This document shows, piece after piece, positions 14,969-61,712 of a DNA stretch of 61,714 nt (position 1 is its first letter; each line of letters begins with the position of its first letter). This DNA is from Pedosphaera sp. (GTDB taxonomy: Bacteria > Verrucomicrobiota > Verrucomicrobiia > Limisphaerales > SIBH01), in assembly GCA_031414955.1 (NCBI GenBank), contig JANOQV010000288.1:1-61714 (forward strand), given 5' to 3'. Made by a program: the position numbers and the translations under genes. The notes under the pieces were generated by a model. It saw only the letters and a program-made list of their open reading frames with translations. It was not told where the DNA came from and made no database searches.

Positions 14969-14996
14969 TTCTGCATTCTGCATTCTGCATTCTGCA
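14969..14996. repeat. Heptamer tandem repeat (TTCTGCA)x4
   Basis: Read directly; a partial inverted copy GCAGAAT lies at about 14931. Confidence 0.9.
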
Positions 14997-15010
14997 TCCT
15001 TACTTAGCCT

Positions 15011-16561: not shown

Positions 16562-16592
16562 TTTGGATTTTGGAATTTGGAATTTGGGATTT
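16562..16592. repeat. Heptamer repeat (TTTGGAA/TTTGGGA type)
   Basis: TTTGGATTTTGGAATTTGGAATTTGGGATTT; same family as 32710-32813 and 51069-51206. Confidence 0.8.
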
Positions 16593-16611
16593 TCCCGCTA
16601 CAACACGCGGC

Positions 16612-23326: not shown

Positions 23327-23368
23327 GGTGAATGAGTTGAGGGTTAGAGGTTGAGAGTTGAGAGCCGA

Positions 23369-51068: not shown

Positions 51069-51206
51069 AAAATCCAAATCCCAAATCCCAAATCCCAAAT
51101 AAACTCCAAACTCCAAGTTCCAAAAGGCTGCGCGCCGACGGGCTGGGAGCTTGAAGGTTGGAATTTGAAATTTGTTTGGGATTTGGAGTTTGGAGTTTGG
51201 AATTTG
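51069..51206. repeat. Inverted heptamer-repeat element (AAATCCC)n ... (TTTGGAG/TTTGGGA)n
   Basis: Read directly; can form a long imperfect hairpin and fills the intergenic gap. Confidence 0.85.
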
Positions 51207-59741: not shown

Positions 59742-59843
59742 GGTAGGGCGACGCTGTCCTCAGCGCGCCGGGGTGGGTCGTGGGCGGTGCAGGAACTCTC
59801 CTCCGTTCGTGGCCCGGCGCGCTGGGGACAGCGCCGCCCTACC
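59742..59843. repeat. Intergenic GTAG-type REPIN (family A) between convergent genes, followed by (GACCCTC)x3
   Basis: GGTAGGGCGACGCTGTCCTCAGCGCGCCG ... CGGCGCGCTGGGGACAGCGCCGCCCTACC inverted arms. Confidence 0.9.
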
Positions 59844-59868
59844 TGACCCTCGACCCTCGACCCTCGAC

Positions 59869-60330
59869 CTATTTGATCCTGATGATCAGCACCATGTCGC
59901 AATACGGCGGAAAGCTCGAGGCCGGGTCGCTGGTATAATTGCCCGGCGGCAACACCGTCACATCCGCGCCCGACTGCACCGAGCCGCCGTTGATGTTCAA
60001 GGGCAGCCCATGCGAATGATTCTCCGCGCCGCCGGTGCCGCCGCTGAAGTTCGCCCCGCGCAGGAAGACCGGCACCCCGCCCTGCGCGCCGTTCAAGTCC
60101 TGGAGATTCTGCCCGAAGTACGGCGAGGCCGCATCCGTCACCGCCTGCCCGTTGCATTCCATCCACGAGTCCGAAAGCGCGGGCGTGCCGGGCCGGGTCT
60201 TGTCCCAATGCTTCACCGTGCCGATCGGCTCCAGCGCATCGATGAGCGCCTTGAGGGAATTGAATTGATCCCGCCACTGTTGCGAGATGAGGCCCGCGGC
60301 GTGCGGGGGAAAGTTTGGATCGAAGGGCAT
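59869..60330 (-). CDS. Small phage-tail-collar-like domain protein
   Basis: 'PIGTV..W......W.ECNGQ.......DL.....FLRG....GGTGGAE.H.H....PPY......I' collar-like pattern; N-terminus MPFDPNFP. Confidence 0.7.
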   Translation of the reverse strand: MPFDPNFPPHAAGLISQQWRDQFNSLKALIDALEPIGTVKHWDKTRPGTPALSDSWMECNGQAVTDAASPYFGQNLQDLNGAQGGVPVFLRGANFSGGTGGAENHSHGLPLNINGGSVQSGADVTVLPPGNYTSDPASSFPPYCDMVLIIRIK

Positions 60331-60390: not shown

Positions 60391-61122
60391 TTAAACCACG
60401 CGGATGCTCGCGATGTCGCTCCACTCGCTCCAGCCGCCGTTCGTGCCGAAGGCCGACATCTGCATGTAGCACAAACCGATGGGCACATTCTTGGCCGTGA
60501 AGCTCGACTTCGTCCCCTCGTAAACCGTCGTTGGCAGGCTCTCCGGGGTGGCCCCGCAACGCACCCGGTACATCTTGGAGTGCGACACCCGATCACAGCC
60601 GCCATCCACCTCGCCGCTGTGATCGCCCTGCGAGATGTGAAAATTCTCCGGCCGCTCCACCTCGGGCGCCGGCTCCGCGTCGGCCTTGAGCGTGAGATTG
60701 GCCGAGAGCAATTTCTCCCGCGCCACTTCCTCCGGGTCGTTCTTCACCGTGTCCTGGCAGTTGGCCACCACGGCGCGCAACACGTTGCGCAGCGCGTCCA
60801 CCTTCTGCTCCAGGATGTCCTCCTGCGCGACCAGCGCCGCCGCCGCCGCGCCCACGATCACCTCCTGATCCGACACCGCCGTGATGGCCGTGTCGATCTG
60901 CGCCGGGGTGGGGGATGGCGTGGGGAAGCTGGCATTGCCCGTCAATCCCGTCTTGATGCTGCCCGCCAGCGTCTTCAAAGCAGCGATGGTGATCTTCGTT
61001 AGTTTTAATGCGACTTGAATCATGGTGCCCTTTCTCCCCCCGCCCACCACCGGCTCCACGTCGAAAAAAACGGTCCCCGAGTCCATGAGGATCAGGGGAT
61101 TTTGATCAAATCCGGGAGCCAT
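60391..61122 (-). CDS. Helical N-domain + fibronectin type III-like C-domain protein
   Basis: 'LTGNASFPTPSPT...I..AI' helical region; C-terminal 'P.NF.ISQGD.SG....Y........S.....A.GT.G.WSEWSD' FN3-like pattern. Confidence 0.75.
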   Translation of the reverse strand: MAPGFDQNPLILMDSGTVFFDVEPVVGGGRKGTMIQVALKLTKITIAALKTLAGSIKTGLTGNASFPTPSPTPAQIDTAITAVSDQEVIVGAAAAALVAQEDILEQKVDALRNVLRAVVANCQDTVKNDPEEVAREKLLSANLTLKADAEPAPEVERPENFHISQGDHSGEVDGGCDRVSHSKMYRVRCGATPESLPTTVYEGTKSSFTAKNVPIGLCYMQMSAFGTNGGWSEWSDIASIRVV

Positions 61123-61220
61123 AAATAGTTAGTGGCAGGTTCTCTATGGGGAACGGAGCGACACTGACCCGTTTGCTTTCTGATGCAACAGCAATCTTGA
61201 ACAAAGATTTCCCGCCCGCT

Positions 61221-61570
61221 GCGCCAGGTGACGCCGGCCTTGCGCCACGCCGCTCCAGCCACGCGCCAGGTGGGGCCGACTCACCGCCATCTCGCCGCGA
61301 GCCGCCGCCAGGTGGCGCTGAACTCGCGCCACCCCGCCCGAGCCTGAAGGCAGGTGGCACCGGACCCGCGCCAGGTCGCTCCGCACCGCCGCCAGATGAT
61401 GCCAACCTCCAGCCAGATGGCACCCACTTCGCGCCAGGTGACGCCAGCTCCCGGCGATGCGGCGCTGACTCGCCGCCAGGTGGCCCGACAACGCCGCCAC
61501 CTGGCTCCAGTTCCAAACCATGTGGCGCAGCTTCAAAACCATGTGGAATAGGATTCAAACCATGTGTCGC
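61221..61570. repeat. Degenerate tandem array, 17 units, exact 21-bp period, core (G/A)CCA(G/T)GTG
   Basis: The CCA core (GCA or CGA in two units) recurs at 61224, 61245, 61266 ... 61560 with no register shift; the other ~13 nt of each unit vary. Confidence 0.9.
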
Positions 61571-61689
61571 CAGAAAAAATCCACAGGGCAAACGAGTCGG
61601 AACACAGGTTTCCGCAGCAGGTTGAGGTGGTTTTCAGTGAACTGCACAAAAAGAGCCAACTCCGCCGCCTGCCCCCCTGCCCATGAACC

Positions 61690-61712
61690 GGAGCGCCGGC
61701 GTCCTCGCCGGC
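61690..61712. repeat. REP-like palindrome at the window end
   Basis: GGAGC-GCCGGCG-TCCT-CGCCGGC. Confidence 0.6.

Follow-up and report, generated by a model that had tools for sequence, protein, structure and literature searches.

The 21-base repeat array at 61215-61571 of the window, by which we mean the whole 61,714-nucleotide stretch of Pedosphaera sp. DNA analysed here, is real and belongs to a bacterial module, present in many copies, that pairs an array with a small gene cassette. By analogy with phage operators, we give an even chance to the reading that the array is a non-coding series of phased docking sites for an oligomeric trans-acting protein that would control the predicted promoter of the cassette.

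The array and its cassette

All 17 cores that the initial annotation had placed at exact 21-nt steps were found, in the order in which it listed them. Identity at lag 21 within the array was 0.562, compared to 0.296 ± 0.024 (maximum 0.374) in 2000 shuffles, and was 0.564 and 0.527 at lags 42 and 63, with all remaining lags between 1 and 62 at 0.22-0.37. The array region also gave the highest lag-21 score in the window (0.567, with the next-best region at 0.397). A profile Viterbi path of 412 bp passed through 19.6 units with 150 mismatches to the consensus and no register slips, extending about two degenerate units beyond the 17 at the distal side. Units are ~55% alike (mean identity 11-12 of 21 bases), and the last three of the 17 are AT-richer as claimed, with 8-11 G+C of 21 compared to 13-17 in the other units; an AT-rich distal end did not hold as a general rule, being present in 12 of 21 homologous arrays (p = 0.31). 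The description of each unit as a short core with ~13 variable nucleotides also had to be revised, as the conserved stretch exceeds 8 nt: columns 7-20 are mostly conserved in 11-17 of the 17 units and only about eight columns vary freely. The core forms a significant dyad, GCCA-NN-TGGC (p = 0.002 in a test with 500 column permutations), which is seen in both orientations (GCCAGGTGGC and GCCACCTGGC). Contigs from the runs of two other studies are nearly identical to the array, indicating that it is neither an assembly artefact nor hypervariable within the population. Genome-wide, GCCA-N2-TGGC was the rarest of nine half-site spacings (370 compared to 394-960), a weak hint that a restriction or binding site may be avoided. 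Intergenic heptamer tracts of period 7 were present elsewhere in the window, at 14969-14997, 16562-16593, 23334-23364, 51070-51206 and 59845-59869.

Table 1 Features of the array, its cassette and its surroundings, in window coordinates
Feature	Position	Strand	Remarks
21-bp phased array, 17 units	61215..61571	.	Dyad core in either orientation; three AT-richer distal units
About two more degenerate units	61572..61613	.	Register kept on the slip-free profile path
X3 and X4 contigs covering the array	61114/61134-61304, 61371-61551, 61535-61694		0-1 differences per piece
X5 contig covering the array	61249-61399, 61434-61584		0-1 differences per piece
Predicted sigma-70-like promoter	61161..61188	-	TTGCAT-N16-CAGTGT, between the array and the 243-aa gene
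132-codon heptad ORF over the array	61144..61542	-	In frame with the 243-aa gene; judged a by-product, not a gene
243-aa helical-hairpin and FN3 gene	60391..61122	-	Aromatic/Asp leader, H46-60, H73-126, H131-140, FN3 151-243; net charge -8
153-aa 'MPFDP' gene	59869..60330	-	Conserved N-terminal stretch; weak tail-collar similarity
REP-like inverted repeat, left edge of the cassette	59742..59843	.	31-nt arms, 94%; 36 genome matches with at most 2 mismatches
Dispersed GC-rich repeat, contig end	61686..61714	.	19 genome matches with at most 2 mismatches, for 61690-61712

Read along the minus strand, the order is array, sigma-70-like motif, 243-aa gene, 153-aa gene and REP-like hairpin, with host genes beyond. 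Structure prediction for the 243-aa protein, the gene for which has an alternative possible start at 61023, gave a disordered leader, a helical hairpin and a C-terminal FN3 domain. The FN3 domain was confirmed by a structure search (Z 13.5, rmsd 1.9, 88 residues aligned), and Pfam fn3 was found in 8 of 28 members of the protein family. The helical part alone was predicted with a pLDDT of 95.9 and received no fold assignment, having a best Z of 5.9 and no Foldseek match below 0.001; NCBIfam gave a single, weak match to this part among 30 family members. Atlas clusters of proteins resembling the 243-aa protein are commonest in Verrucomicrobiota, with one in Bacteroidota, and no relatives were present among viral contigs, phage records or plasmid records, tblastn searches included. 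The single RNA run yielded a contig with ~90% similarity to the FN3 part, a weak match that comes from a relative. The similarity of the 153-aa protein to PHROG tail collar is weak (E 0.02-0.08); its N-terminal stretch recurs with swapped C-termini, including collar-like and collagen-like ones, and its gene has homologues on nine other contigs in this genome. In 19 of 36 loci, the FN3 gene is followed by a gene of the 'MPFDP' type; those at L009 and L011 are divergent and of collagen type. Neither Pfam, PHROGs nor PADLOC gave a significant match to the cassette proteins of the window, and for 12 other cassette proteins Pfam gave only one weak fn3 match. PADLOC profiles (2023 library) matched 0 of 12 cassette proteins. 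Judged from the FN3, collar and collagen domains, the two cassette proteins are likely to be fibre or appendage parts. Among the window 243-aa protein and the products of cassette genes elsewhere in the genome (L059-L069), several unrelated-looking proteins have in common an aromatic-Asp leader (WD, YD or FD dipeptides) and a helix-turn-long-helix core, followed by an FN3 domain or a Pro/Ser-rich tail, and they are possibly one superfamily.

The REP-like repeat and the GC-rich repeat at the contig end are probably host repeats, the former probably also lying outside the module. The two differ from each other, several arrays in the genome are near contig ends, and repeats of such a kind perhaps break assembly near arrays. 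A search for an empty site covered 11 loci of relatives for which downstream DNA was present (a twelfth, with 4 bases only, was set aside). The cassette did not follow the upstream membrane-protein gene in any of them, and since gene order beside that gene is not conserved, no insertion site could be defined.

Recurrence of the arrays in homologous loci and across the genome

Homologues of the FN3 protein were used to follow the array beyond the window. Of 44 loci fetched, 33 carried a full-length homologue after removal of one duplicate, and 31 had at least 300 bp upstream; these 31 include the window itself and relatives that are not independent. The upstream regions, which the initial annotation had marked as the place to look, gave a lag-21 score of at least 9 in 27 of 31 loci and of at least 20 in 22 of those, with L012 carrying a 22-bp array, the sole period other than 21, and L017, L027 and L037 carrying none. 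Homologous cassettes with no periodic tract upstream were to have counted against the array; this was not what was found. By comparison, 0.9% of random 900-bp windows (n = 1500) scored at least 9 at lag 21, and downstream of the gene such scores were reached in 4 of 29 loci, none of them scoring 20 or above. Of 22 homologous arrays, 17 had a significant consensus dyad (p < 0.05). The L012 array appears young, with near-identical 22-bp units and a CCGA-N4-TCGG dyad. The FN3 protein was matched in 2 of 401 phylum-wide genomes at E ≤ 1e-15 with a narrow alignment and in 11 of 14 genomes of the family at E ≤ 0.001 with a wide one.

The genome contains 30 segments with a period of 21, a few of which are ordinary coiled-coil genes. 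At lags 17, 19, 20, 22, 23, 28 and 36 there were 0 segments each, at lags 18, 24, 25, 27, 30 and 33 there were 1-6, and at lag 15 there were 21. The genome has about 25 such arrays unrelated to one another, and 26 intergenic ones were followed; their sequences are mostly unrelated, with a median profile correlation of r = 0.30 and four pairs above 0.75. These pairs are C213/C119 (r = 0.96), C127/C58 (0.92), C280/C184 and C130/C136, with an overall range of 0.79-0.96. Many arrays adjoin other helical genes, which are orphans outside any Pfam family and encode 139-330 aa; C12, C292, C208 and C58 lie 3' of a helical gene, and C127, C119 and others adjoin no cassette gene. The C119 array is located before toxin-antitoxin-like genes, C184 has just a 37-codon remnant of a C280-type gene beside it, and at C58 (L067:142-831) the helical gene upstream of the array is broken by a stop codon, its C12 paralogue being intact. 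A significant dyad was present in just 9 of the 26 arrays.

The claim that length is conserved more than sequence was borne out, with 23 of 30 arrays free of slips at a typical 25-45% mismatch to consensus and 11 register slips compared to 3137 mismatches across all 30. At L008, L009 and L010 the genes are 82-88% identical and the distal flanks 74-86% identical, and the inner units cannot be aligned; these arrays have in common only their end units and an outer TGT-N6-ACA dyad. Other arrays have near-identical units and appear young (L024 with 8% mismatch, L044 with 11%, and L012). From these patterns, we infer that arrays are renewed by gain and loss of whole units together with point change. 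Judging from the loci compared, array sequence evolves far more rapidly than the genes beside it, and the spacing is retained. Because the dozens of arrays per genome keep one period with no common sequence, homology search and sequence clustering miss these arrays.

The predicted promoters lie on the gene side of the arrays, with the array edge in the window ~27 bp from its sigma-70-like motif. A promoter-like motif between array and gene was present in 15 of 22 homologous loci (sigma-70-like in 8, sigma-54-like in 7, never the two together) and neither type in 7 of 22, counts for which the patterns were fixed after data inspection and the related loci are not independent; background rates are 0.05 per 170 bp for the sigma-70-like and 0.015 for the sigma-54-like pattern. 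A strict sigma-70 scan reported no promoter, the window motif included. In L008, L009, L010 and L013 (4 of 22), a second, divergent promoter-like motif lies beyond the far side of the array. With motifs on the gene side and divergent ones on the far side, the array would lie outside the predicted transcripts. Distances from core to -35, taken modulo 10.5, were 7.5, 7.5, 7.5, 8.0, 0.0, 1.5, 2.0 and 5.5, so that the phase is not fixed, and an IHF-site scan gave matches at 3 of 30 arrays without a pattern. At L021, L022 and L030 a long leader past the sigma-54-like motif, ~250 bp upstream of the gene, is better conserved than the array and could be a structured RNA.

Coding, RNA and repeat-copying readings of the array

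Given that 21 bases are seven codons, the array was considered as a coding sequence for coiled-coil-like heptad repeats, in the form of a rapidly evolving peptide or an N-terminal extension, a reading we regard as quite improbable. The heptad ORF shares the frame of the 243-aa gene, the L009 array is open through into its gene, and two database proteins, P0132 and P0170, carry such extensions, which are most simply gene calls that ran across an open array. The 'HLA' that was said to recur every seven residues in this ORF is present in 7 of 17 heptads, and a single L/V/M/I column is what stays constant in all 17. Variation in the window array falls most on first codon positions, a point for the peptide, and not on third positions, the bias for which a check had been proposed, a point against it (conservation 0.56, 0.69 and 0.67 at the three positions). 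Among 22 homologous arrays, however, 10, 9 and 10 are open in the respective sense frames, five are closed in every sense frame and two in all six, and this lack of any frame preference leaves the heptad-peptide alternative unsupported. Further, a 22-bp array such as that of L012 cannot hold a frame, the ORF would cross the predicted promoter, and Atlas recognition for the ORF was 1120 with a best score of 0.77. The minimum pN/pS of 0.71 compared to 0.73 in a column-permuted null, and the value of 1.04 in the 'HLA' frame, also speak against a peptide, in a test that is weak in that two of three coding controls gave ~0.9; the verdict on the gene thus rests on the frame counts and the 22-bp array. 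The layout of a repeat with a variable part would also suit an array that is transcribed and acts as RNA, either as 21-nt processed units similar to TIGR or CRISPR guides or as a long imperfect duplex, and several arrays fold far below shuffles (L007 with z -13.9, L029 with -10.8 and L032 with -10.7). The window array itself, in contrast, had an MFE z of -1.6, or +0.6 compared to column shuffles, and pairing around the dyad axis was 0.432 near and 0.442 far from it. No Rfam family covers the array; Rfam gave only sub-threshold miRNA models, on hairpins outside the array. No RNA contig covers the array, an absence that carries no weight by itself. Its spacers scored 14.6/16 against the genome, with nulls of 14.4-14.6/16, and matched phages at chance level only. 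A nuclease or Nop-type partner was absent among recurrent neighbours, and no RNA-guided effector family recurred across 36 loci, whose flanks are short. With no local hairpin excess and the array upstream of the predicted promoter, a processed small-RNA array found no support, the array is probably not an RNA, and we hold guides or a duplex to be highly improbable. Consensus dyads with no such excess of hairpins point to double-stranded sites rather than stem-loops. The L007 array also had a z of -15.5 compared to column shuffles and contains register shifts; it may be an array fused to an inverted copy of itself.

It is also conceivable, if unlikely, that the array is a passenger minisatellite of BOX-like type, its 21-mers produced by fixed-step copying, whether slippage or an enzyme that moves the cassette, and then decaying with no regulatory role. 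The young arrays with near-identical units (the 22-bp L012 array among them), the replacement of inner units between conserved end units, and the recurrence of array families at unrelated loci, some with no gene, are all consistent with copying of this kind. Neutral decay, however, is expected to break the register of a repeat, which was kept in the slip-free majority of arrays; the genome is empty at lags 20 and 22; and no integrase, transposase or RT family recurs among the clustered neighbours of the FN3 loci. Diversity-generating retroelements produce adenine-specific variation, and such an element was rejected, since across 30 arrays consensus A, C, G and T are retained at 0.64, 0.66, 0.65 and 0.66 and the window array is invariant across studies. 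The neighbouring helical and FN3 protein could in principle bind its own array, in autoregulation or as an iteron- or centromere-type pair of a small mobile unit. Gene and array are tightly linked, array motif and FN3 sequence are weakly correlated (rho 0.145, Mantel p 0.027), and L008 and L009 have protein and motif in common. Against this, L009 and L010, whose proteins are the most similar pair (0.85/0.92), have arrays no closer than the median (0.29 compared to 0.30), the motif does not follow the helical part (rho 0.005), 27 of 28 family members carry a net charge of zero or below, and genes without FN3 are also preceded by arrays. Although the FN3 protein had been put forward as a binder, its charge and the failure of the motif to track it indicate that it is probably not the reader of the array, and we consider binding to its own array very remote indeed. 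The neighbours of the FN3 loci (36 loci) include no recurrent DNA-binding gene, and the window locus has no cognate HTH repressor gene. Small, stand-alone XRE genes do lie within ~1 kb of arrays C292, C249, C12 and C213 (L069, L070, L068 and L071), sharing the strand of the cassette gene wherever such a gene is seen, and make up 4 of the 18 HTH_3 matches in the genome; as readers they found no support, since the arrays near two similar XREs differ (rank 229 of 325).

Proposed phased docking sites and related systems

The docking reading takes the 17 short palindromes as a double-stranded strip for a putative protein encoded elsewhere. In B-DNA, 21 bp is two helical turns, so this step would put every dyad on one helical face. 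Of the scaffold proposed initially, the one-face part appears to fit best and the iteron-like part does not, given units ~55% alike, no Rep gene and no plasmid match. Putative dimers, or a wheel or filament, might bind the dyads cooperatively or wrap the DNA, as with 186 CI, and the bound protein would then govern the activity of the predicted promoter in front of the two-gene cassette. Duplication and loss of whole units with point change would renew the sequence, and selection would hold the register. The docking reading is weakened by the variable phase between core and -35 and by the dyads being limited to 9 of 26 genome arrays, and the private sequence of each array would call for many readers or one sequence-tolerant reader. 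Arrays that lie 3' of genes or stand with no gene, the three homologues free of arrays, the seven loci free of promoter-like motifs and a search for a binder that found none also count against it.

Several known systems resemble the array in part. In plasmid iterons and type Ib, II and III centromere arrays, a small gene adjoins helically phased units of 17-22 bp, similar to the phased 21-bp units here. The units of the window array are instead diverged, dyadic and in both orientations, with no Rep or ParA/ParB and ~25 unrelated arrays per genome, and an iteron origin was rejected in view of the absence of both near-identical direct repeats and an adjacent Rep gene. Known sigma-54 enhancers, the upstream activating sequences of bEBPs, comprise two or three sites and not 10-20; the array likewise lies ~80-190 bp upstream of a -24/-12-like motif at 7 of 22 homologous loci, whereas the window, which has no -24/-12, and its closest relatives carry the sigma-70-like motif. 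BOX elements and other bacterial minisatellites vary in inner-unit number between conserved ends through turnover of whole units, as appears to happen here, but these arrays lack a unit sequence common to the genome, have a period fixed at 21 bp and are tied to one class of accessory genes. TIGR, VIPR and CRISPR arrays, as described in a 2026 language-model survey of periodic intergenic arrays, have periods of 18, 5 and 60-79 nt, conserved repeats and a cognate effector, with minor bands at 10, 8 and 7 (bioRxiv 10.64898/2026.10.21.760802). The window array is similar to these in its strict period and its mix of conserved and variable positions, and differs in its period of 21 and in having no Rfam family. 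No effector was recognised; the cassette encodes an FN3 fold and a helical hairpin with no specific match. The main-text sections of that survey on array periods name no 21-nt class, and its supplements may list period-21 clusters (bioRxiv 10.64898/2026.10.21.760802). By analogy, the nearest described case is the CI repressor of coliphage 186, for which three pR operators two DNA turns apart are described as wrapped on a 14-mer wheel (PMC3675496). Here too dyad sites lie two turns apart beside a promoter, in this case a predicted one; the differences from the described system are 17 sites rather than three operators, a sequence private to every locus, and the lack of a cognate repressor at the locus, where CI is encoded beside its own sites (PMC3675496).

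No description of the array-plus-cassette module was found in the openly accessible literature, with most subscription papers outside the scope of the search, and the module is apparently undescribed so far. A further reading, which we regard as rather improbable, casts the arrays as strips of rapidly changing sequence that act as sensors of, or decoys for, DNA-binding proteins from phages or mobile elements that invade the cell. Every cassette would have its own operator-like code, binding to which would turn the cassette on, and the products would be cytoplasmic mimics of virion parts, a helical and FN3 adaptor and a fibre protein whose tips can be exchanged, which might disturb or hijack tail assembly. 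If true, this would be a dispersed multi-phylum conflict system with its specificity in arrays of DNA sites rather than in guide RNAs or sensor proteins. If the arrays are docking strips, they would represent a promoter design with fixed spacing and a site code that changes more rapidly than the gene, a pattern suggestive of either conflict or a sequence-tolerant protein that reads phase. L008, L009 and L010, with near-identical genes and different arrays, form a natural comparison that makes a direct test possible.
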